Shown here: positions 5,787 to 17,883 of the stretch, in pieces | How the letters are laid out: each line of letters opens with the position of its first letter | How positions within the stretch are numbered: the stretch's first letter is position 1 | Origin: an uncultured virus (IMG/VR IMGVR_UViG_3300031963_000096) | Taxonomy: Duplodnaviria > Heunggongvirae > Uroviricota > Caudoviricetes | DNA: 20,000 nt | IMG/VR virus record: IMGVR_UViG_3300031963_000096 | Strand: one strand, 5' to 3' | The notes under the pieces: generated by a model | Seen by the model: the letters and a program-made list of their open reading frames with translations, nothing else | Told to the model about the DNA's origin: nothing | The model's database searches: none | Made by a program: the position numbers and the translations under genes

Positions 5787-8700
5787 ATGACTATTCCTAT
5801 CATAACAAGAACGAATACCATTGATGAATGGCGAATTCAAACAAATTTGTCAGCTATAGAATTAAATAATTTAAAAGCTAACAATTATACAAAATCAAAT
5901 GGTACTTTAGAATTAGCTAACAACTCTGTACTTTTAATAAGTGCAAACGGTACCGCACTCCAAGTTTCAAATAGTGCTTTTATCGGTAGAAATTTAGCAG
6001 TAACAAATAACGTTTCTGTTGGTGCAGTTGGTTCTGGTGTTGGTAATGTCTCTATAGGTAACTCTGTTTTGATTGCTGGACCCGGAGAAGCAGTTAACGT
6101 TTCAAATAGTGTTTATGTTGGTGGCAATAGCAATGTTAGAGGCAACGTGTATGCGAACAATGCAGTTGTCAATAATTCTGTTTATGTTGGTGGCACCGCT
6201 AACGTTGCTGGTATTGTTACACTATCAGGAACAGGTAAAGTATTGGAAGCAAATACTGGAACTGTATATGTTAATAATGCATATCTAACTACTGCAACAC
6301 TAGATCAAGCAAACGTTGAATTGATCTATGCTCTTGAAGCTAAAATTGACAACCTTTCTGATATTGCTTCTGCTGTAATTGGTATTTTGCGTGTAACAAC
6401 AGGTAATATTTATTATCTAACATCGAACACTTTATATGCTAATACTGGAACGATCAGAGATTTTGTTGCAAACAGCACAGGTAATGTAGTAACACTTATA
6501 TCAAATGTTGCAACAATTAATACCGCAACTATTGGTAACTTAAACGCAACAAATGGTACGATTATCAATGGTAATGTAGTAACACTTATATCAAACAATG
6601 CTACTTTAAATACATCTACTTTAGTTAATATAACAGTAACTAACGCTGCAATTGCAAATGCCGTTATTTCTTCGGCTGCAATTACGACTGGTCAAATTAC
6701 AAATGGTACAATTACAAATGGTACTATCATTAATGGTAATATAGTTACTTTAATTTCAAATAGTGCAACACTTAATAATTCTACATTGTTAAGTTCAAAT
6801 GTTGTTTCTGCAAATATTATAAATGCTAATGTTTCTGGTAATGTAAACTTTACCAATGGATCAACATTAAGATTTAATTCTGGATCAGCAAATGATGCTC
6901 TTGTTGTAGATTCAGGTATAACCTCTTTACAGACTGTCGTTGTTGAAGGAAACTTAACTGTTGCTGGAGTATTTACTCAAACAGGTAATATTAATTTTGA
7001 AACAGATAGATTCATTTTCAATGCAAATACACCTGACAATAAAGATGCGTTGATTGTTAATAATAGAATTTACGGAAATAATGCACAGATTGTTTGGAAC
7101 GAAACCAATGATCGATGGGAAGTTTCAACAGGTAATACTTGGACAACAACTTATAAGATTTTAGATGGCGCAGACATTTATACAGGTGTTGATTCTGATA
7201 GTACAACACTTGTAGCTTCTGCGAGTGCTGTTAAATTTGCATATCAAGCTGGTGGTGTTGTAGCCGGTGGCTATGCTAATGCAGCTTATAGACATGCCAA
7301 TTCTGCATTTGTAAGTCAAAATACAACAGGTGTTTATGCCAATACTGGATATGCTCATGCAAATTCAGCACATGATGTGGCAAATTCTGCTTTTAGTGGA
7401 GTAAGTGGTACACATGCAAATGCGGCCTACAGACATGCAAATTCATCTTATGCACATGCAAATACGGCTAATGTATCTGCTCAAGCTGCCTTTGATGCGG
7501 CTAACAATGCTTTTGCAGCTGGTGGTCAATTTGCTTATAGACATGCTAATTCAGCACACGATATTGCAAACTCAGCTTTTGCTGGAACAACAGGTACTCA
7601 TGCCAACTCAGCATATTTTACTGCAAATACCGCTTTAACAAATGCTGAAATTGCTGACCAAAAAGCTGTAGCAGCTAATACTAGAGCCGCTTTAGCTAAC
7701 GTTCATGCAAATGCCGCATATAATTTTTCAAACACAATAAACAACTTTGCTTTTCATGCTTATACTCATGCTAATGCAGCGTTTGCTCGAGCAAATACAG
7801 GAATTACATCTACTGGAGGTACTATAACAGGTGATTTAACAGTTAATGGAACATTGAATGCTACTGGAGCTTCAATTTTTGCAAATGATATGAAAATTGC
7901 AGATGGAATTATAACACTTAATTCTGACATATTACAAACTGCATCACCAATTGAAAATGCTGGATTAGAAATAGATCGAGGCGCTTCACCTAATGTATTC
8001 TTTTTATGGGATGAAACTTCCGATAGGTGGAGATTTACAAATGATGGTACAAATTATCAAGACGTTGCAGGTCAAACAACAATTAATTCATCTTTAGCCG
8101 CATATGTACCTTTAGCAGGTGGAACCATGACTGGTTTCTTGACTCTGAGTGCAAGTCCATCAAGTGCGATGCATGCTGCTACAAAAGCTTATGTTGATGC
8201 TACAATAGGATCAGCAGACCTAACAAATTTAAATGCTTCAAATTTAACAAGTGGTACTGTTCCAGTTGCTCGCTTGAGTGGATTATATAATATCAATGTT
8301 AATGGTAATGCTAACTATGCAACAACAGCTGGATCTGCCACAAGTGCAACGACCGCTAGCACCGCTTCCAGTTTAAATGGTGGTAATATTCAAAACTGTA
8401 CTGGTTTCGCACAAAGTAGTGGAGCATTTTCAATGACCGGAAGTTCTTTCGGTGTAAATCCCTATGCACAATTTTATGGAGGCATAAGATCTTTTGCTGA
8501 TATAAATGCATCTGGAGCAAATATAACAGCAAGTACTTTTTATGGTAATTTAAGTGGAACAGCAACACGAGCTCTTTATGGTGACTTGGCAGAAAAGTAT
8601 CTAGCTGACGGCGAATACGATGAAGGTACCGTAATGGCCATAGGCGGCGAAAAAGAAATAACAGCAGCAACAATTGCCAACTTTAGAGCTCTAGGTGTAG

Positions 8701-8930
8701 TATCATTGAGACCTGCACACTTAATGAATGCTGATTTGGAAAACGGAACAATTGTTGCTTTAAAAGGTAGAGTTCCTGTAAAAGTTATAGGCAAAGTAAT
8801 CAAAGGTCAACCTTTAGGATTAAGTAACATAGCAGGAGTAGCAAGTGTTAATGAAATGAATTACTTTGCATTATCTCTGATAGATAAGAACGATGATGGT
8901 GAAGGTATAGTCGAAGCAGTTATTTTATAA
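5787..8930 (+). CDS. Tail fibre / fibrous virion protein (1047 aa) with C-terminal peptidase-G2-like intramolecular chaperone domain
   Basis: N/T/S/A/G/V-rich, with pentapeptide beta-repeats (ITNGT), ANxAY/FxH heptads and a GGTMTG.L.L...P....HAATKAYVD fibre motif. The C-terminal domain reads GDLAEKY.ADGEY.EGTV..IGGEKEIT...GVVS..PA.LMN...VALKGRVPVKVIG.V.KG. Confidence 0.8.
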   Translation: MTIPIITRTNTIDEWRIQTNLSAIELNNLKANNYTKSNGTLELANNSVLLISANGTALQVSNSAFIGRNLAVTNNVSVGAVGSGVGNVSIGNSVLIAGPGEAVNVSNSVYVGGNSNVRGNVYANNAVVNNSVYVGGTANVAGIVTLSGTGKVLEANTGTVYVNNAYLTTATLDQANVELIYALEAKIDNLSDIASAVIGILRVTTGNIYYLTSNTLYANTGTIRDFVANSTGNVVTLISNVATINTATIGNLNATNGTIINGNVVTLISNNATLNTSTLVNITVTNAAIANAVISSAAITTGQITNGTITNGTIINGNIVTLISNSATLNNSTLLSSNVVSANIINANVSGNVNFTNGSTLRFNSGSANDALVVDSGITSLQTVVVEGNLTVAGVFTQTGNINFETDRFIFNANTPDNKDALIVNNRIYGNNAQIVWNETNDRWEVSTGNTWTTTYKILDGADIYTGVDSDSTTLVASASAVKFAYQAGGVVAGGYANAAYRHANSAFVSQNTTGVYANTGYAHANSAHDVANSAFSGVSGTHANAAYRHANSSYAHANTANVSAQAAFDAANNAFAAGGQFAYRHANSAHDIANSAFAGTTGTHANSAYFTANTALTNAEIADQKAVAANTRAALANVHANAAYNFSNTINNFAFHAYTHANAAFARANTGITSTGGTITGDLTVNGTLNATGASIFANDMKIADGIITLNSDILQTASPIENAGLEIDRGASPNVFFLWDETSDRWRFTNDGTNYQDVAGQTTINSSLAAYVPLAGGTMTGFLTLSASPSSAMHAATKAYVDATIGSADLTNLNASNLTSGTVPVARLSGLYNINVNGNANYATTAGSATSATTASTASSLNGGNIQNCTGFAQSSGAFSMTGSSFGVNPYAQFYGGIRSFADINASGANITASTFYGNLSGTATRALYGDLAEKYLADGEYDEGTVMAIGGEKEITAATIANFRALGVVSLRPAHLMNADLENGTIVALKGRVPVKVIGKVIKGQPLGLSNIAGVASVNEMNYFALSLIDKNDDGEGIVEAVIL
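6480..6760 (+). repeat. Intragenic repeats: exact 26-bp direct repeat (6480-6505, 6570-6595), diverged third copy (6735-6760), tandem 15-bp ITNGT units
   Basis: ggtaatgtagtaacacttatatcaaa occurs twice, 90 bp apart. It encodes GNVVTLISN, with a third copy GNIVTLISN. Confidence 0.85.
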
Positions 8931-8949: not shown

Positions 8950-10374
8950 ATGAATCAGCCTTTAAATTTTTATGCAAAAAAATCTATGAAAGGAAATCCT
9001 CATGTTTTTGATGATTACTTTCAATTGAGTGCTTTAACAATTACTGTAACGAGCGCATGTAATTTACATTGCGATTATTGTTTTGAAGAACATGAAAGTA
9101 GGTTAATAAAACCCGATGAAGTAGTTGACATTATTGATGTTGCATATAAGAATTTTAGAAAAAATAATCCTACTGGTTCAATGCCATTATCTTTTTTTGG
9201 TGGTGAACCTTTTATCGCATGGAAAACTATTCAAAGATGTATTGAACACGCTAAAGAAAAAGGTTATGATCTTTCTGTTGGCATAACAACAAACTTAACT
9301 TTGTTGACTGATGAACAAATGGAGTTCATTGATGAGAATGATATTGGTTTGTTAGTTTCAATAGACGGCACCAAAGAAGTTCATGATAGATTACGTGATA
9401 ATTCTTATGATGTTGTTTCTAAAAATGTCAAAAAACTAATAGACAATGGCATGAAAAGGTTAATAGAAGCTCGGATGACAGTTCCGCCAGGTGAATTTCA
9501 TAATCTTTTAGCTGGAGTTCAAAACATTTTTTCTTTAGGTGTTGATAACATTGCTCCTGTTCCTGTTACCGATCAAGTTTGGACTAAAGATCAAGTTAAA
9601 TTATTAGAAAATGAACTTGATAAATTGTATGAATGGACAATTTCAATATACGAAGATCCAAACAATAAAAGAAACATTAGTGTGAAAATGATTGATGATT
9701 ATTTGTTTCAATGCATACATGACGAATTTGATATGAAAGGTACACCTTGTAGTTTTGGAAGTAATAAATGGCTGAGTATAGGTCCTAGTGGTGAAATGTA
9801 TCCATGTCACCAAATACATACACGAAAAGATCAACAAGAATTGTTTTACATGGGAAATATTTTAAAAGGTGAAATACTTCCACATAGAATTTTAGGTCAG
9901 GTTTTGCCACATTCATGGAAAAAAGCTGACGATCCAGAATATACATGCGACACATGTGAGGCATATAATATTTGTAGAGGTTCTTGCCCAAGTGAAAACT
10001 ATGATTTAAATAAAGATTATTTAAAAACTCCAGATGAATGGTGTGATTGGGTTAGAATGTCAAAACGAATCACGAAAAAATACCAGAATCAACTTTTAAA
10101 TAGTAAAAATTTGAGAAATAAAAGATTAAATTCTATAAAACTAAATTTAGAGATTATGGAAATGATTGATAGGGTGAGAGAATATAATGTATACTCCCGA
10201 GAATTTCCTCTTGTTGTTCTTGATTTATATGAAAAAGTTTTAAGTTGTGAACATAATTTGTTACCTGGTTTTTCTGACTTATCAAAAAATAAATTAGCAA
10301 AATTTAGAGAACAACTAACACAAATTAGAGATGAATTAATTAAAAAAGAATCAATGCAAAAGGAAACAGTTTAA
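8950..10374 (+). CDS. Radical SAM/SPASM domain protein 1 (peptide/protein maturase-like)
   Basis: CNLHCDYC (CX3CX2C), FFGGEP, ITTN.TLL and VSIDG...HD..R. SPASM cysteines: PCSFG...GEMYPCHQ...CDTCEAYNICRGSCP...WC. Followed by a ~100-aa helical C-terminal extension. Confidence 0.95.
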   Translation: MNQPLNFYAKKSMKGNPHVFDDYFQLSALTITVTSACNLHCDYCFEEHESRLIKPDEVVDIIDVAYKNFRKNNPTGSMPLSFFGGEPFIAWKTIQRCIEHAKEKGYDLSVGITTNLTLLTDEQMEFIDENDIGLLVSIDGTKEVHDRLRDNSYDVVSKNVKKLIDNGMKRLIEARMTVPPGEFHNLLAGVQNIFSLGVDNIAPVPVTDQVWTKDQVKLLENELDKLYEWTISIYEDPNNKRNISVKMIDDYLFQCIHDEFDMKGTPCSFGSNKWLSIGPSGEMYPCHQIHTRKDQQELFYMGNILKGEILPHRILGQVLPHSWKKADDPEYTCDTCEAYNICRGSCPSENYDLNKDYLKTPDEWCDWVRMSKRITKKYQNQLLNSKNLRNKRLNSIKLNLEIMEMIDRVREYNVYSREFPLVVLDLYEKVLSCEHNLLPGFSDLSKNKLAKFREQLTQIRDELIKKESMQKETV

Positions 10375-10973
10375 TGGGTACCTCTGTACATCAATCACAA
10401 AATACGATCATCGAAAACGATGATTATAATCCAAATACTGAAAATGATGCTTGGAATATTCGAAGAAGATATGTTGGATTAGCTGCCATTTGGAGTAATC
10501 CAAACGCTGGAGATACTGGTTGTGCTAGAACGCAAACATATAGTACGTCCATAAGAGTTAGAAAATTTTCAGATGCTGGAAGACCTTATAGTGATGGTAC
10601 TATTCTTGGTCTTACTGTAAGACAGCCTGTAGACAATCAAGAAATTTTAGCTACAGATTTAGATAATGCAAGACGAATTATCAATGAAGGTGTTGCAGCT
10701 GTAAATCAATCTTTTTTAAATTCAACAACTGGATTTATTAATCCAGCTTCTGGGTATGCAAGTCGAGATCAAGAAATTTTAGCTTCACACATCAATAATT
10801 TAATTAATACTATTATAATCACAGAAACTAAGTTAGACATATACAATTCATATTATGATGGAGCTGACTTATGTCAAAGAAGTTGCCAAATACAATGTCA
10901 GACAGCATGCCAAACAAGTTGTCAAGGATGTAATACTTCACAATGCCACAATCAAAAATGTGGAGTGCATTGA
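10374..10973 (+). CDS. 199-aa protein with C-terminal Cys-rich CQxx-repeat tail; putative radical SAM substrate/precursor
   Basis: Ends CQRSCQIQCQTACQTSCQGCNTSQCHNQKCGVH (8 Cys in the last 33 aa). The start overlaps the rSAM1 stop (TAATG), and the gene sits between rSAM genes. The N-terminal part has repeated QEILA.....N motifs. Confidence 0.85.
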   Translation: MGTSVHQSQNTIIENDDYNPNTENDAWNIRRRYVGLAAIWSNPNAGDTGCARTQTYSTSIRVRKFSDAGRPYSDGTILGLTVRQPVDNQEILATDLDNARRIINEGVAAVNQSFLNSTTGFINPASGYASRDQEILASHINNLINTIIITETKLDIYNSYYDGADLCQRSCQIQCQTACQTSCQGCNTSQCHNQKCGVH

Positions 10974-10974
10974 T

Positions 10975-12300
10975 ATGTTTGATGTAATTTCCAAAGTAAC
11001 ATTAAAACTCAGCACATATTGTAATTTAGCTTGTGAGTATTGTCATCAAATGACTGATGATAAAAAACATCATGTTACTTTTGAAAAATATAAAGAAATG
11101 TATGACTTTTTACTAAAGACAAATTTGTCTGATGTTGTTGAAGTAACTTTAACTGGTGGAGAAATTTCCCTTTTAGAAGAAGAATATGAAACAGCTGTAA
11201 AATGGTTCAGAAAGATTGAAAGACAGAGAGATGTAAAGTTTACTTTTGCTGTTGTTTCAAATGGTACAAATATAAAACAATTATTTAAATTAATAAAACA
11301 AGGTGATTTAAATCCTAAAAGAACAACAATTAGTTGGGATGGATTATACACCATGTCAAAGAGTCGTAAAAGTAAATTTGAAAAATTCAATGATGATTTC
11401 TTTAAAAATGTTGTTACTGAAATTGGCCAAAGTCCATGGGCAAAGCAATTAAACATTACACATGCAATAACACCTACTACCATCCCTTATTTACACGATA
11501 GTTTAGTTTTTGCTTTAGATGCTGGTGTAAAAAATTTTGGTTTTTATTATATACATGAAGCCGATTATAGCGACAAAGAATTTTTAAAAATTTATGATGA
11601 ACAAGTTACAAAATTAGGTGAAGAATTTGTAAAACGATATGAAGATTTGTCAACAAGATTTGTTTATTATAATTGGCAATTATTATATGCTAAAGAAAAT
11701 TTGCCAACAGATAACAAAGAATTAATGAGAGCCACAACTCTTTGTCACAAATTAGGAAGAACGGTGCATTTTGACCCATTAGGTGACATTTATGGTTGTA
11801 TTTATTTTGGAGACCATAGAGCTCTAAAACTAGGTGATTTGGAAAATGGTAATATAGATAAAACGAAATATCAAAAATTTAGTGATCAATACTTCGAAAT
11901 GCCAGGTTGCAAATTAGATAGTTGTGGCAATTCACATTGTTTTGAATGTCCAGCAAGTAACTATGTACATAAAGGAAAAATGGCGAATAGATTTAGTAAC
12001 ACATGCGAAATGTTATCTATTGAAAAAAGAATTTACTATGATTTAAAACCTAAACTTAAAATAGATGAATTTGATAAAGCTTTTTATTGGATGGAAGAAG
12101 ATCATTTAGAACAAAAAAACTATGATGATAAGTATGAAACATATTTAAATGATATAGTAGGTATACCTTTAACTGAGGAAGCTTATGTTGAAGATGATGA
12201 GTACTCAAATAGATTAAGTCCAACGTATAAAAATGTTGTTACTTGGATGAAAAAAACTCCTAAGAAAAAAGAATTTACTCTAAATTTAGAAACCATATGA
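10975..12300 (+). CDS. Radical SAM/SPASM-like protein 2 (441 aa)
   Basis: Likely start is the ATG at 10975, 1 nt after the precursor TGA (MFDVISKVTLKLSTYCNLACEYC). Motifs LTGGEI, VSNGT and ISWDG are present. Auxiliary-cluster cysteines: LCHKLG...GDIYGCIY...CKLDSCGNSHCFECP...TC. Confidence 0.93.
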   Translation: MFDVISKVTLKLSTYCNLACEYCHQMTDDKKHHVTFEKYKEMYDFLLKTNLSDVVEVTLTGGEISLLEEEYETAVKWFRKIERQRDVKFTFAVVSNGTNIKQLFKLIKQGDLNPKRTTISWDGLYTMSKSRKSKFEKFNDDFFKNVVTEIGQSPWAKQLNITHAITPTTIPYLHDSLVFALDAGVKNFGFYYIHEADYSDKEFLKIYDEQVTKLGEEFVKRYEDLSTRFVYYNWQLLYAKENLPTDNKELMRATTLCHKLGRTVHFDPLGDIYGCIYFGDHRALKLGDLENGNIDKTKYQKFSDQYFEMPGCKLDSCGNSHCFECPASNYVHKGKMANRFSNTCEMLSIEKRIYYDLKPKLKIDEFDKAFYWMEEDHLEQKNYDDKYETYLNDIVGIPLTEEAYVEDDEYSNRLSPTYKNVVTWMKKTPKKKEFTLNLETI

Positions 12301-13586
12301 AAAAGAAGTTTTCAAAAATAGGTTCTAATATCAATCATGTTTATCTTATGATGACAGAGGCTTGTCCTTTAGATTGTGAATACTGTTACATAAAAGATAG
12401 AAAAACAAAAAACAATGTAAGTGATGAAGATATTGATACTTTAATAAATGCTTTTGAGTATCATACTCCTAGAATAATTTATTTTGGTGGAGAACCTTTA
12501 CTCGAAGTTGAACATATAAAAAGAGTTACTGAAAGATGGAAACATAGGTGTCAGTTTCAAGTTATAACTTCTGGATTAGTAAACTTCGATAAATTTGTTG
12601 ATGAAGTTTATTTACCTAATAAAGAAAAATTTGATATTCAAATATCTTGGGATGGTTTCGAAAATGACAACCGAGTTTTAAGAAATGGTAAAAATAAACA
12701 AGATAGAGTTATGGCCACCATATTAAGTACCTTAGAAATGGGTATACCTCTACAAGTAAGAAGTGTTATAAATGACGAAAATGTTGATAATCTCGTTAAG
12801 ATTTATGAGACCTATAGATATTTAAAACTTCAGTATCCACATTTGACGGGTGATATAACTATTGCTCATCAAAAACATTTCAAAGATGATTTTCCAGAAA
12901 AGTTTAGGCAACAATTTAAAACAACACTTGAAATAATTGAAGATGATATTAATAATGGTATAGAGCCTTATTTTCCATTAGAGTACATGAAAAAAATGAC
13001 TAGTGCGTTAAATGGAAGACATGTTAGTTCGTGTGATGCTGGAAATTATTTGGTTTTAAAACCAAGTGGCGCACTATATCCTTGTACAATATTAAGTCAA
13101 CAAAATGATGATGTTGATTTTATCATGGGTCATATTTCTGATAGAGACTTAGATTATGATATGATGGATAAAATGCGAAAGCCAAGTGAAGCTGAAATTT
13201 GCAAAACTTGTGGAGTTAGATCTGTATGTGATGGTGGTTGTCGATATGAAAGAGTTGCAAATTATGGTAAAGATTGGATGGGAAAAGTTTGTGGTTTTAC
13301 CTGTGGTGTTTCTGAAGCCTGGTTTCATGAAACAAAAAATTGGGTTTTAAACATGAATGAAAATGTTTATGAAAAAGTAATTCAGAGATTGGTATTATTT
13401 AATAATTGGGTTATTCATTATGATACTGGTCACCATGACGAAGCAAAAAAACACCAGACTTTTGATAGAGAACAATTGAAATTAGGTAAAAGATTAGATT
13501 TTTATAATTTTTATAAAGACACTACTGAGAAAAAGATTATACCTATTTTGCCATTGAGTAAAGAAAAAAATGTCTTTGTCACCTAA
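12297..13586 (+). CDS. Radical SAM/SPASM domain protein 3
   Basis: CPLDCEYC, YFGGEPLL and ISWDG. SPASM: SCDAG...GALYPCT...CKTCGVRSVCDGGCRYE...VC. ATGA overlap with the upstream stop. Confidence 0.95.
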   Translation: MKKKFSKIGSNINHVYLMMTEACPLDCEYCYIKDRKTKNNVSDEDIDTLINAFEYHTPRIIYFGGEPLLEVEHIKRVTERWKHRCQFQVITSGLVNFDKFVDEVYLPNKEKFDIQISWDGFENDNRVLRNGKNKQDRVMATILSTLEMGIPLQVRSVINDENVDNLVKIYETYRYLKLQYPHLTGDITIAHQKHFKDDFPEKFRQQFKTTLEIIEDDINNGIEPYFPLEYMKKMTSALNGRHVSSCDAGNYLVLKPSGALYPCTILSQQNDDVDFIMGHISDRDLDYDMMDKMRKPSEAEICKTCGVRSVCDGGCRYERVANYGKDWMGKVCGFTCGVSEAWFHETKNWVLNMNENVYEKVIQRLVLFNNWVIHYDTGHHDEAKKHQTFDREQLKLGKRLDFYNFYKDTTEKKIIPILPLSKEKNVFVT

Positions 13587-14802
13587 TTTTAAAAAATCTG
13601 TTGATGGTATCGCTAAAGTAGGTAGACAAAATAAAAGATTTGAAATATTTTTAAATCTTACCTATAAATGCCCTTTGAGATGTACTTATTGTTATGTGGA
13701 TTACAATAGGGCTCCTCCAATGACACAAGAGCAGGTTGATTATGTCATTGAAAAACTTCTCATTGAACCTAAAAAAACTGATATAAAGCTTGTCACCTTT
13801 TTTGGAGGTGAACCTGCTTTAGAGATGGACATCATAGAAAATACCTTAGACAAATATTCTCATGTTGAGAAAATAAAAAATGTTCATTTTGGAATCATAA
13901 CAAGTTTTTCTGTCAATCAAGATAGACTTTTAAAGTTACAAAAAAAATATCCAAAATTAGAAATAGCTATAAGTTTTGATGTTGATATGAAAGAAAGAGT
14001 CTTTATCAATAAAAAACAATTTGATTTATTAGGTGTGGCTAAGAAAAAATTTGATATTGATTTAGAAAAGATGAAAGAAAATAAAAATAATATTTTCTTT
14101 AATAAAGTTATTACAGGGCAAGAAACAGATTTATTTGGTGATTTGAAATGGCTTCACGATACTTATAGGGACTATAAATTATTTTATAGTTTATCGTTTA
14201 CGAAAACGCCTAAGTTTCCTTTTCATCCAGAAGGAAGAATAGAGGAAGGTTGGTATAAATATTTAAACTATATTTTTTCTAAGTATTTAACTAATGAAGT
14301 AGTATTTTTACCTATGTTAGTTTTACAATACTTAGATCGTTATTGGAAACAAAAAAAGAACACAGCCACTTCTGGTTGTGGTTTGGGTGGTGAATATTTT
14401 ATTGATAGTAATGGGACAGTTAGTCCATGCAGTATAAGTCATCATAGAACAGATTTAATGCTTTATCATGAAGGAAAGTTTCTCGACAATAATGAACACT
14501 TTCAAGAATTAGAAGATAGTTATTGGAACAATCCTACATGTCAGAAGTGTGAATATAAAGGTTTTTGTCCTGGCGGTTGCATGGTTTTTAGGTATACTGA
14601 AAATAACGATTACAATATACCAAATGAGGGCCAATGTATTTTGATGGAAGAAATTTTTAAGGCCTATGACAGATTTTTAAATGAACGTACAGAAAAAGAA
14701 ATAACTGAGTTAACTTTTATTCTAGCAAAAGATTTACAGAAATATCATTCGTATTGTCATCATGATGATGAACATATAGATTTACAAGCAATTTATAACT
14801 AA
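13570..14802 (+). CDS. Radical SAM/SPASM domain protein 4
   Basis: CPLRCTYC, FFGGEPAL and ISFD. SPASM: GCGLG...GTVSPCS...CQKCEYKGFCPGGCM...QC. 17-bp overlap with the upstream gene. Confidence 0.95.
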   Translation: MSLSPNFKKSVDGIAKVGRQNKRFEIFLNLTYKCPLRCTYCYVDYNRAPPMTQEQVDYVIEKLLIEPKKTDIKLVTFFGGEPALEMDIIENTLDKYSHVEKIKNVHFGIITSFSVNQDRLLKLQKKYPKLEIAISFDVDMKERVFINKKQFDLLGVAKKKFDIDLEKMKENKNNIFFNKVITGQETDLFGDLKWLHDTYRDYKLFYSLSFTKTPKFPFHPEGRIEEGWYKYLNYIFSKYLTNEVVFLPMLVLQYLDRYWKQKKNTATSGCGLGGEYFIDSNGTVSPCSISHHRTDLMLYHEGKFLDNNEHFQELEDSYWNNPTCQKCEYKGFCPGGCMVFRYTENNDYNIPNEGQCILMEEIFKAYDRFLNERTEKEITELTFILAKDLQKYHSYCHHDDEHIDLQAIYN

Positions 14803-14813
14803 GTGAGAACATT

Positions 14814-15965
14814 ATGCACATTTTTTTACCTGAATTAATATACAATGAAATAAAAGAAAATGATAAATTTAAATCTATTTACAATTCTTTAAATGATTTT
14901 TTTGATACAAAAACTAAGTGTTTAATTGATTACAATAATGAAATCAATAATGATGATTATTATAAAGATTTGAATGATTTTTTAAAGAAAAATTTATCAG
15001 AAAAAAATAATAAAATATGGAATTGTTTTAAAGTCTGTGTAGATTTTGATGAAAAAGATAGTAATAAAGATTGGGAAAAAATTAGAGAAGTAATTGATTC
15101 GTGCAAAAAAGACGATGATTTAGAAGTAAAATTGTATGCGTACTATATGGAAATGGCAAATACTGCTGATCATGAATCTGAAAAATGGATAGAAAATGTT
15201 GAAGAATCTTTAAAATTGTTCGATCAAAATAAAGATAAAGTTTTTGATACAAGATTGTATACAAAATTTTATTGGGATGTACACGAAAAAAATAATTTTT
15301 ATTTAAAAAATAAAAAAGAAAAAGATTTAATTGATGAATTTAAAAATTATCAAAAATTAGATTTAGAAACTAAAGATTTTATATTTTCAAAACATAATGA
15401 TACATACACTAAAGATATAATTAACCATAAAACAATATATACTGCAATTCAATTCTGGCATGCAAATTTAAATTCGGCGGAAAACGATCAAAAAAGTGCT
15501 GAATATGTTCTAAAAAAATTAGATGATAAAATTGCAAATTTAGATTTCAAATATAATTCTTTTAACATGCATTTAATGGAATGGCTATGGTTAAATTTTA
15601 AATGGCATTTAGATAGAGATAATATTCTAGCGGTTGATGTGGTAGAAATTATGATACAAATTGTTGAAGAAACATTAAAAAATAAAAATTACATGATAAG
15701 ATCTTTACGTCATCATAATTTTAATTATATTTCTAATTTTTTAATTTTAATGCAAAATTTAAATGAAGTTGAAAAAATCTTTGAAAAAGTGTTAGTAAAC
15801 TATGAAAGAAAATTAAACAAATTAAATTGGACAGAAAAAGAATATAAAGTTATTATTGATAATGATCTATCAATTACTAATAACTGGTGGAACGAAAGAA
15901 GTAGAACACTCAACAATTACAAAGAAAATATGATTTCTTCTATAAAAAATAAATTTTTAGGATAA
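14814..15965 (+). CDS. Hypothetical alpha-helical protein A (383 aa), paralogue of the next gene
   Basis: Long ORF in very AT-rich DNA, K/N/E/D/L/I/F/Y-rich. Starts MHIFLPELIYNEIKEN and ends IKNKFLG. No recognisable catalytic motif. Confidence 0.8.
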   Translation: MHIFLPELIYNEIKENDKFKSIYNSLNDFFDTKTKCLIDYNNEINNDDYYKDLNDFLKKNLSEKNNKIWNCFKVCVDFDEKDSNKDWEKIREVIDSCKKDDDLEVKLYAYYMEMANTADHESEKWIENVEESLKLFDQNKDKVFDTRLYTKFYWDVHEKNNFYLKNKKEKDLIDEFKNYQKLDLETKDFIFSKHNDTYTKDIINHKTIYTAIQFWHANLNSAENDQKSAEYVLKKLDDKIANLDFKYNSFNMHLMEWLWLNFKWHLDRDNILAVDVVEIMIQIVEETLKNKNYMIRSLRHHNFNYISNFLILMQNLNEVEKIFEKVLVNYERKLNKLNWTEKEYKVIIDNDLSITNNWWNERSRTLNNYKENMISSIKNKFLG

Positions 15966-15968
15966 AAA

Positions 15969-17174
15969 ATGTTAGTTTGGCTACCAGAAAATATCTATCA
16001 ATTAGTAAAAAATAATTCTGAATATATTTCAATAATTGAAGAATTAGAAAAAGTTTCTTTTGACGGAGAACTTTCTTCTACTGTACCTGAAAATACTCCA
16101 GAAACATGGCCTATCTATAGAAAATTATATTCATTTTTAAATTCTGTTGAGAAAAATGAGTACGAACAGATTACTTGGGAGTTGAATAAAATTCTATTTG
16201 ATAAGTTGTTTCTCGAAATAGATAATGAAAATTTTTCATATACAGACAAATTATTATCTTTAAAAGATACCTTAGTAAACATAAAAAATAAAATAGATTC
16301 TTTAGATGATTCTGTTATAAAAAACCTTCTAAAAATTAATTTTTTACAATATGAAATTTTAGCTTTGTCTGAAAATAATAGTTTTTTTTCTGCTGATTTG
16401 ATTGCAAAAAGGCAAGAATTGTTATCAACATTTGATTCGATTAAAAAAGAAAATGTGACTTATGATTCTGTAATAGATTATTTTGAAAATTATTTTAATC
16501 TATACATGGTAAATTTAATAAAAAATGAAAGTTTGGTGGTAAAATCTTTTAATGATTTACAATTAAATTTTAATAAATTTAGAATGGATCTTGATTTAAA
16601 AATTGATGAAGTAAAAAATTCATCAATTGAACACAACTACTTTAAACTTTTTGATGTTCTAAATTATTTAAAATTGTACTTTATAAACTTTTATTATGAA
16701 AGTTTTATACCAATGGTTAATTTAACTGATGATGAAAAATTGATAATTGACAAAAATATTGTAAAATATGCAAAGAGTGTAGATTTTAAATACAAAAATT
16801 TCAATATTATTACCTTACATTTTTATTGGATAAGAATGAAAATGTTTTTTTCATTTAAAGACTATGATCAGTTTTTAAAAGTTTTTAATGAAATGTGTCT
16901 ATATTTAAAGTTAAATTTAGATAATAATAAAAAAGATGTGATTAAATCTATAATTTTTCATACGCAATCTGACCACATAGATTTTTTAATTTTGATCAAA
17001 GTTTTATTAGAATTAGATGAGGAAATGAGTAAATTTTTTAAACAAGAAAAACAATTAGAAAATTTAAATTTATCTGAAAAAGATATTACTTTGATAAATG
17101 CAAATAATGATAACTATAAAAATTCATCTTACTTTTTTGATATTAATTTCATAAAGAATAGGTTCTATGGATAA
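15969..17174 (+). CDS. Hypothetical alpha-helical protein B (401 aa), paralogue of the previous gene
   Basis: Starts [16 protein letters not shown] and ends IKNRFYG. Lies 3 nt after the previous stop and overlaps erpA by 8 nt. Confidence 0.8.
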
Positions 17175-17502
17175 TTCTCAAATTACGATAACAGATAATG
17201 CTGCCTTTAAAATTGCAGAAATTATAAAAGATTCTGAAGCTGAAGGTCAATTTATTAGAACTTTTGTTCAAGGAGGCGGTTGTTCTGGTTTTCAGTATGG
17301 TTTTACTTTTGAAAATGAAATAAATGATGATGATTTTGTGGTTGAAAAAAATGACATAAAATTACTCGTTGATAGTATGAGTATGACATATTTAACTGGT
17401 GCAAAAATAGATTACAAAGAAGATTTAAATGGATCACAATTTGTCATTGAAAATCCTAACGCTCAGTCCACATGCGGTTGTGGGAGTAGTTTCTCAGTTT
17501 AA
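17167..17502 (+). CDS. erpA: A-type iron-sulfur cluster carrier/insertion protein (ErpA; HesB/IscA/SufA family)
   Basis: [44 protein letters not shown] and a terminal [10 protein letters not shown]. All three conserved Cys are present in the 111-aa protein. Confidence 0.95.
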
Positions 17503-17550: not shown

Positions 17551-17883
17551 TTGGCCGAATTTGTCGAACTAACCCTCGAACAGGGTGCAACTTTCAATAC
17601 AGTAATTAATGTAAATGATGGTACCGGCTCTCCTCAAAATCTAGTTGGATACACGGCACGCTCAATGATGCGCCGGTCCTACTATACTTCCTCATCCAAA
17701 GAATTTCAAGTTTCTGTTTCAACACCAGCCTTAGGTGAAATAACCATGTCTATGTCTGCGGCCAATACTGCAAATTTGACTCCAGGAAGATATGTTTATG
17801 ATGTGGAGATAGATGATGGTGCAGGTGAAGTTACAAGAATTTTTGAAGGTATTATTACCGTTTTGCCTAACGTAACGAGATAA
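17551..17883 (+). CDS. Conserved small phage structural protein (Ig-like / baseplate-upper-protein-N-like), TTG start
   Basis: AGGAG precedes the TTG. Pattern L.LEQGATF......D..G...NL.GYTARS.MRRSY...G.IT.S.SAA.TA.L.PGRYVYDVEI......V.RIFEGIITV.PNVTR is typical of T4-like aquatic phage structural regions. Confidence 0.8.
   Translation: MAEFVELTLEQGATFNTVINVNDGTGSPQNLVGYTARSMMRRSYYTSSSKEFQVSVSTPALGEITMSMSAANTANLTPGRYVYDVEIDDGAGEVTRIFEGIITVLPNVTR

Follow-up and report, generated by a model that had tools for sequence, protein, structure and literature searches.

P0001 is a 199-aa protein encoded at 10374..10973 of a 20,000-nt stretch of DNA (the window) from an uncultured tailed virus, a large freshwater phage (IMG/VR record IMGVR_UViG_3300031963_000096), downstream of a long tail fibre gene and within a run of four radical S-adenosylmethionine (rSAM) enzyme genes; all window features given below lie on the + strand. 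It combines a three-repeat N-terminal region with a C-terminal Cys ladder and is considered here as a candidate fibre-associated virion protein. The ladder (10872..10970) reads C-x3-C-x3-C-x3-C-x3-C-x2-C-x4-C-H-N-Q-K-C-G, with Gln next after most Cys residues, and is near-invariant in the family alignment (A1). It is presumed to be the substrate of the rSAM enzymes. A sequence-only reading of this DNA had counted 166 aa before the Cys core, three related motifs, an exact 17-bp repeat common to two of them, and a composition rich in N/T/S/A/G/I that resembles virion proteins rather than K/E-rich enzymes. These observations held up. The first ladder Cys is C167 (a ninth Cys, C50, lies within the N-terminal region), and the motifs occupy residues 9-19, 87-98 and 131-142. 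Repeat 1 (QNTIIENDDYN, 10398..10496) comprises its motif and a helix at 21-41, up to a conserved IW-x-N-P-N-A-G motif; repeat 2 (DNQEILATDLDN, 10632..10712) has a helix at 93-113 and repeat 3 (RDQEILASHINN, 10764..10853) a helix at 137-160. The exact 17-nt repeat starts at 10636, inside repeat 2, and again at 10768, inside repeat 3; it extends to 32 nt at 81% identity, and such an exact repeat arose in 1/5000 codon shuffles. The N/T/S/A/G/I fraction is 0.53 in P0001, 0.47-0.66 in the flanking virion proteins and 0.30-0.32 in the four rSAM enzymes and two accessory proteins, while K/E makes up 0.05, 0.03-0.09 and 0.16-0.22, respectively. By composition, therefore, P0001 groups with the virion proteins and away from the enzymes and accessory proteins.

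Fold and family of P0001

An AlphaFold2 (AF2) model of P0001 (predicted TM-score, pTM, 0.71) places a motif before each of the three helices and leaves the Cys tail at a predicted local confidence (pLDDT) below 50. On this model, residues 1-166 are three G-x-x-I-x-A-x-D-x-N + helix repeats, predicted to form a three-helix bundle, and no leader peptide. Related consensus sequences recur at the three positions in 74 short family members, and the repeat profiles match one another with hhalign probabilities of 83-95%, in windows centred by their motif Ile, a choice that makes matches more likely. At E<=0.1, none of Pfam, NCBIfam and PHROGs gave P0001 itself a match to a leader family, a cellular family or anything else; Foldseek of the model against the PDB gave no match and PDB sequence searches were negative. 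The best match in a viral structure library (E 5.8e-3) was a gut-phage protein labelled SCIFF. An Atlas structure search with residues 1-163 found mainly viral clusters at TM ~0.5, under its bar and a lead only; a stand-alone protein of 119 aa and Ig/FN3 fusions were among them. VIA-align of the model returned a designed filament (Z 8.7), BARA domains (Z ~6) and TssK/IglD (~5), all of which were rejected as chance level for helical bundles. When three fibre C-termini were modelled in complex with residues 1-165, the score was 0.00; the controls did not fold, and the result was weighed neither way on binding.

Proteins with the same (type A) tail form a sizeable family. A word search gave 31 proteins from 61 candidates, the window's own included, and a profile search 125 representatives, for a total set of 150. 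The full ladder lies within the last 50 residues in 128/150. Lengths range from 71 to 950 aa, 52/128 exceeding 250 aa, and mean identity to P0001 in alignment A1 is 87% over the ladder versus 33% over the N-terminal part, where three G-x-x-I-x-[A/N]-x-[D/I]-N repeats are kept. The His of the ladder end, C-H-[N/D]-Q-x-C-G, is invariant. Among the long members (n=64), 11 carry CBM_5_12, F5/8C or Gly_rich_2 domains (6 over the Pfam cut-off) and 52 have no Pfam match; 5/63 match PHROG tail families. In L012 and L015 the gene context shows carbohydrate-binding or glycine-rich tail domains inserted in the N-terminal part, which thus behaves like a scaffold and not like a leader. Three members (P0137, P0146, P0149) have internal ladders followed by ~190-260 aa more. 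In two loci, L058 and L062, the three-repeat domain is followed by a ~170-aa CxxxC ladder; these are two similar copies in one Bacilli bin. The earlier description of P0001 as a virion protein fused to a "RiPP-like core" (RiPP, ribosomally synthesised and post-translationally modified peptide) is therefore partly retained: the Cys ladder is there, but "core" fits loosely when ladders may reach ~170 aa or sit internally.

The reach of the family was also probed in other collections. A search with the N-terminal region gave 3 close relatives only, and a search for shorter forms one fragment. The family profile had no match outside the seed genome among 399 scored genomes of one phylum and none against genome contigs; tblastn with P0001, P0125 and P0041 as queries found nothing real in cultured phages. 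A weak profile match (E 0.41) at G000:C1:8275-8400, in a 921-aa gene after gp5, is probably chance. Searches by DNA pattern gave mostly chance loci (6/7 in one, 7/9 in another), and Acinetobacter phage matches, together with the rSAM neighbourhood of CP220, were rejected as unrelated.

Cys-free homologues and the preceding fibre

The sequence-only reading had proposed that the "leader" is a phage structural-type protein and had suggested looking for homologues that lack the Cys tail in phages without rSAM genes. A first-repeat pattern that combined the family consensus with a start motif matched at least 123 stretches, of which 80 loci with flanks were examined. They encode 72 unique proteins, most of them 280-335 aa long and none with more than 2 Cys among its last 45 residues. 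No Pfam or PHROG name was found for this family, and we refer to it by a label coined here, MAY. In 55/72 unique MAY proteins the gene directly follows one ending in the same chaperone-like domain as the window's fibre (fibre-end matches to the window, E 1e-16 to 1e-30), which supports the structural-type proposal. With the hidden Markov model (HMM) of the Cys-tailed family, 38/72 MAY proteins scored above 15 bits and 0/360 shuffles did. When the searched motif was kept and the rest of each protein shuffled, 0/360 passed; when the motif was removed, 28/72 MAY proteins still exceeded 10 bits versus 0/360 shuffles. By hhalign the two families match with a probability of 78% (62 columns; E 1.8e-5, versus 0.31 for the reversed control). 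The MAY model has the same three N-terminal helices, followed by a beta-domain, and a BFVD entry (A0A6J5TC84) matches it strongly and the P0001 model weakly (E 0.77). P0001 thus resembles MAY in three N-terminal I-x-A-x-D/Q-x-N + helix repeats (family-level profile homology) and in coming after a fibre with a Peptidase_G2-like end, although in the window one rSAM gene intervenes. MAY's C-terminal beta-domain, with its FFNAGG motif, is replaced in P0001 by the Cys ladder, so that the module is shared and P0001 is not a full member.

None of the 80 MAY loci has an rSAM gene of the window type; many carry an unrelated one ~4 kb off, and rSAM genes occur somewhere in 4/5 MAY records tested. The fifth, Pseudomonas phage PA5oct, has 0 Radical_SAM matches and is a case of the kind that the sequence-only reading had looked for. 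Its PQE65_gp360 belongs to MAY (the MAY HMM gives it 72 bits), and both gp360 and the preceding fibre are noted in RefSeq as detected by ESI-MS/MS (electrospray ionisation with tandem mass spectrometry). This evidence is the RefSeq note, as guessed gene numbers were not found in the PA5oct supplements. According to the available part of the PA5oct report, ESI-MS/MS was used for 93 particle-linked products (PMC7318152). Two records (G412 and G413, behind L191 and L214) are single phage genomes of 328-354 kb with 17 and 22 Radical_SAM matches.

A Cys-free three-repeat protein also occurs beside rSAM genes. In the phiKZ-related Ralstonia jumbo phage RP12, ORF74 (ORF, open reading frame) follows two fibre genes and precedes three rSAM genes; it was spotted by eye before scoring and gives 22 bits with the N-terminal HMM, with all three repeats found. 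RP12 differs from the window in that its Cys tail (Asn-Cys type) sits on a separate single-repeat protein, an unannotated 65-aa ORF (L016:5745-5942) between ORF74 and the rSAM genes that is also present in RP31.

The fibre in the window is a 1047-aa protein (5787..8930) with a Peptidase_G2-like intramolecular-chaperone domain at its end (~8570-8930). That label rests on the aligned fibre ends, 16/22 of which match PF11962 (E<=0.1, best 3.4e-7); the copy in the window is not among them. We examined the best 80 of 141 loci with an orthologous upstream structural gene. Of these, 70 had a fibre ORF of 200 aa or more, and 43 extended at least 2.5 kb beyond the fibre; the rest were dropped, among them L072, which is nearly identical to this phage but has its fibre reading frame interrupted. 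In these T4-like tail loci, rSAM genes plus a gene for a Cys-tailed protein came after 10/10 fibres with the window's C-terminal domain and after 0/33 fibres with other ends (after dereplication, 9/9 and 0/19). The Cys tails come in three versions, types A, B and C. The type-B tail, C-H-x-S-C-H-x-x-C-H-x-S-R-G-R-R, was found in 7 loci of T4-like relatives; the type-C tail, C-x-C-N-S-D-C-x-C-N, was found in 3 loci, and the domain after it matches PHROGs of virion and tail-fibre proteins. The N-termini of both show three similar motifs by eye. Gene comparison among close relatives suggests a swappable slot. In one of them (L071), with an upstream structural gene 94.7% identical, a type-B cassette occupies the same site instead of type A. 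The type-B Cys/His tail is also found right after an rSAM gene in Burkholderia phage FLC8 (gp72; L066:10060-10620) and at the same position in FLC6 and RSF1, cultured phiKZ-like phages that thereby share it with T4-like freshwater phages.

The radical SAM cassette and its relatives

The window sits in a 62.6-kb virus contig, estimated to be 15% complete, whose gene order is read as a T4-like baseplate and tail region; the gene names are ones we presume from N-termini, with backing from PHROGs for those inside the window. From a large structural gene the series passes to a small virion protein, the fibre, rSAM A, P0001, rSAMs B-D, two unknowns, ErpA, an LtfC-like gene and more fibres. Enzyme A (8950..10374; Pfam Radical_SAM) has a ~100-aa C-terminal extension and no N-terminal RiPP recognition element (RRE). 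Enzyme B (10975..12300) has its start set from the L011 orthologue and a weak TIGR04119 match at the C-terminus; C (12297..13586) and D (13570..14802) complete the set. All four have the CxxxCxxC rSAM motif and 7-9 Cys after residue 230, as in SPASM-type enzymes. Their best-scoring models are thioether-forming maturases (PapB, QhpD, ScfB), all below cut-off: PapB gives 88-180 bits against 340 (the highest being the best NCBIfam match of enzyme A) and ScfB 44-125 bits against 425. The matches begin at ~85-96 of RRE-bearing maturase models such as TIGR03974, and therefore the N-terminal RRE, which we take to precede that point in the models, is missing. Accessory protein 1 (14814..15965, 383 aa) has no family, although proteins with a similar N-terminus, judged by eye, recur in other cassettes; accessory protein 2 (15969..17174, 401 aa) has no credible family. 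ErpA, an Fe-S cluster insertion protein (17167..17502; NF010147, 165 bits, cut-off 117), likely supplies Fe-S clusters to the rSAM enzymes. The LtfC-like structural gene (17551..17883) marks the right edge of the cassette, because its orthologue often lies directly after the fibre in cassette-free relatives. Over the two accessory genes (14814-17502) the GC content falls to 21-26%, compared with 31-39% for the structural genes on either side, as would fit a cassette that was acquired.

An rSAM gene adjoins the Cys-tailed gene in L011, L012, L014, L015, L033-L039 (7/7) and L056. In L033 (10173-11831), L036 and L037 the precursor gene has one or two additional genes behind it; the L033 pair matches PHROGs of HNH endonucleases, suggesting that the cassette is mobile. 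The phage of L037 has a second, different system (L047:1480-1866, - strand), in which a protein with a fibre-type N-terminus, a coiled coil and a CxxxC tail lies directly before an rSAM gene. The rSAM B orthologue in L056 (8312-9985, - strand) is 557 aa long and, by eye, has an apparent intein-like insertion just after CxxxCxxC.

Among the closest known systems is the CXXX-repeat system (NCBIfam maturase TIGR04115, targets TIGR04114/TIGR04117; PF27846), which likewise has Cys at every fourth residue beside rSAM/SPASM genes. Weak TIGR04117 matches were found in 14/57 family members (best E 0.0013), and PF27846 occurs in 19-52% of the members of look-alike, largely viral Atlas clusters, with scores <0.9 that make them leads only. 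The best enzyme scores reach only 84/350 bits with TIGR04115 and 26.5/150 bits with TIGR04119, P0001 matches no target model, and the window is unlike that system in its four rSAMs, its three-repeat structural domain and its phage tail location. With the SCIFF/CteB-ScfB and PapA/PapB ranthipeptides it shares the best enzyme models and a C-Q-x-x-C-Q tail that resembles SCIFF (TIGR03973 matches 3/57 members weakly, best E 0.0047). It departs from them in scores below cut-off, in having neither an N-terminal RRE nor a Cx3D/E pattern, and in a substrate of 71-950 aa across the family versus ~45 aa. Canonical ranthipeptides have a short leader + core precursor, and P0001, at 199 aa with a predicted three-helix domain, does not. 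The P0001 system thus works like a CXXX-repeat/ranthipeptide system and fails membership on precursor size and model cut-offs. Another likeness is CrpC/CrpA of Methanococcus voltae, where an rSAM/SPASM enzyme acts on the Cys-repeat motifs of a whole, unreleased protein and installs thioether cross-links in it (PMC13692751, as far as its available text goes). That system belongs to an archaeal chromosomal cluster, has one RRE-bearing enzyme and a function described as unknown; in the same available text the word "phage" occurs 0 times. A full-text literature search, with subscription papers and bioRxiv supplements outside it, turned up no paper on rSAM modification of a phage virion protein.

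Proposed role of P0001 and alternatives

We consider it rather probable that P0001 is a virion protein associated with the fibre and that the four SPASM enzymes cross-link its CxxxC ladder; that it is located in the virion in some form is more likely still. P0001 would be a minor component of the particle, accompanying the 1047-aa fibre. For residues 1-160, three tandem strand + helix repeats that form a single-chain three-helix bundle are predicted, and this pseudo-threefold bundle could be an attachment module, one copy of which might sit on the trimeric fibre end. The payload of the module would vary between phages: the MAY beta-domain, sugar-binding or glycine-rich inserts, or one of the three Cys tails. 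In the window, the four rSAM/SPASM enzymes, with Fe-S clusters from ErpA, would install Cys-to-carbon thioether cross-links in the ladder, a chemistry we infer from the PapB/SCIFF-type matches and the CrpC analogy. The modified tail would stay attached as a rigid tip, resistant to protease and reduction, and probably act in host recognition. Speaking for this reading are the repeats and predicted helices shared with MAY, the place of MAY genes after such fibres, the PA5oct note, the tie between fibre end and cassette, the inserted sugar-binding and tail domains, the virion-like end of the type-C variant, the long and internal ladders, the lack of an RRE in the enzymes, and a search of the 62.6-kb contig that found no C39 or ABC motif.

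Several observations weigh against this reading. The homology to MAY is remote and transitive: reciprocally, 9/74 members exceed 10 bits and P0001 itself reaches only 4.1, and PA5oct gp360 scores 0.8 bits in full and 12.6 for its best domain with the family HMM. The PA5oct mass spectrometry list, in the part available, includes 7 virion-unrelated enzymes (PMC7318152), and there is no virion evidence for any Cys-tailed member. The RP31 virion table (PMC5468394, Table S3) has no entry for the three-repeat ORF70, but with its two neighbouring fibres likewise absent we regard this as uninformative. No solved structure matches convincingly. The counts of fibre ends and cassettes are uncorrected for shared ancestry, and 14/14 other loci with the same fibre end have neither a match to the three-repeat HMM nor an rSAM gene within ~6 kb. 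The resemblance of the N-termini of types B and C to that of type A is weak (21% and 11% probability, respectively). The cassettes of L012 and L056 come after a thymidylate-synthase-like gene and no fibre, and the flanks of L033, L036 and L037 carry no functional label.

Different chemistry on the same kind of protein is one alternative: P0001 could be a virion protein with a Cys/His ladder that holds metal or Fe-S clusters, or that receives a non-thioether change (epimerisation, a C-C or C-N link, methylation), the rSAMs acting on it otherwise than as ranthionine synthases. The invariant His of the ladder end, the C-H-x-S-C-H-x-x-C-H of type B and the co-encoded ErpA would all suit such a tail, as would four different enzymes, none at any maturase cut-off, for one 33-aa tail. 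PapB uses Asp/Glu as acceptors, unlike the mostly Q/S/T/A acceptors of the ladder. We nevertheless think this unlikely, given that the best-scoring maturase models are thioether-forming and that the tail is weakly SCIFF-like (TIGR03973, 3/57, best E 0.0047).

The two remaining alternatives take P0001 out of the finished particle. In one, the three-helix domain is the structured leader or carrier of a true phage RiPP, and the modified tail is cut off and, as a free peptide, targets host or competitors. A SCIFF-like core far better conserved than the N-terminal part (87% vs 33% mean identity to P0001), its C-terminal position in 128/150 proteins and the location of some cassettes outside evident tail modules would fit, but a leader is hard to reconcile with inserted sugar-binding and tail domains, with internal and very long ladders or with Cys-free homologues after the same fibre type. 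GG/GA lies within 10 aa of the core in only 11/128, and a regular-expression search for a C39 or ATP-binding cassette (ABC) motif across the 62.6-kb contig found none, though in a contig ~15% complete a protease may lie elsewhere, which is a further point against a retained tail. We consider a released peptide quite improbable. An equally slim chance is given to a non-structural assembly factor that would bind the fibre chaperone domain and be lost together with it once self-cleavage has taken place. Assembly chaperones are often encoded next after fibres, and the co-occurring fibre end is Peptidase_G2-like, a named autoproteolytic cleavage domain; the PA5oct homologue is, however, noted by ESI-MS/MS, and a protein that is thrown away would hardly need receptor-type inserts and a cassette of four enzymes.

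If P0001 is indeed a cross-linked, fibre-associated virion protein, RiPP-type radical SAM chemistry would build part of a virus particle. Genome miners would have cause for caution, since phage "SCIFF/RiPP" clusters of such a kind would probably not encode peptide natural products. Four RRE-less enzymes for one 33-residue ladder offer a system open to direct test in E. coli, and near-identical phages a natural three-way comparison of tail chemistries. The finding would also offer a function for uncharacterised CXXX-repeat rSAM systems and for some rSAM genes of large phages, whose abundance in such genomes has been called highly unusual (PMC2853527, in the part available). A wider possibility, which we put forward tentatively and with some doubt, is that unrelated large tailed phages share a swappable fibre-tip system, in which a single-chain pseudo-trimeric cap docked on the fibre end shows either an ordinary adhesin domain or a Cys ladder, stapled by as many as four dedicated rSAM enzymes into a host-recognition needle that is covalently rigid and possibly metal-binding, and in which A, B and C cassettes, differing in ladder chemistry, are exchanged among close relatives like receptor-binding modules.

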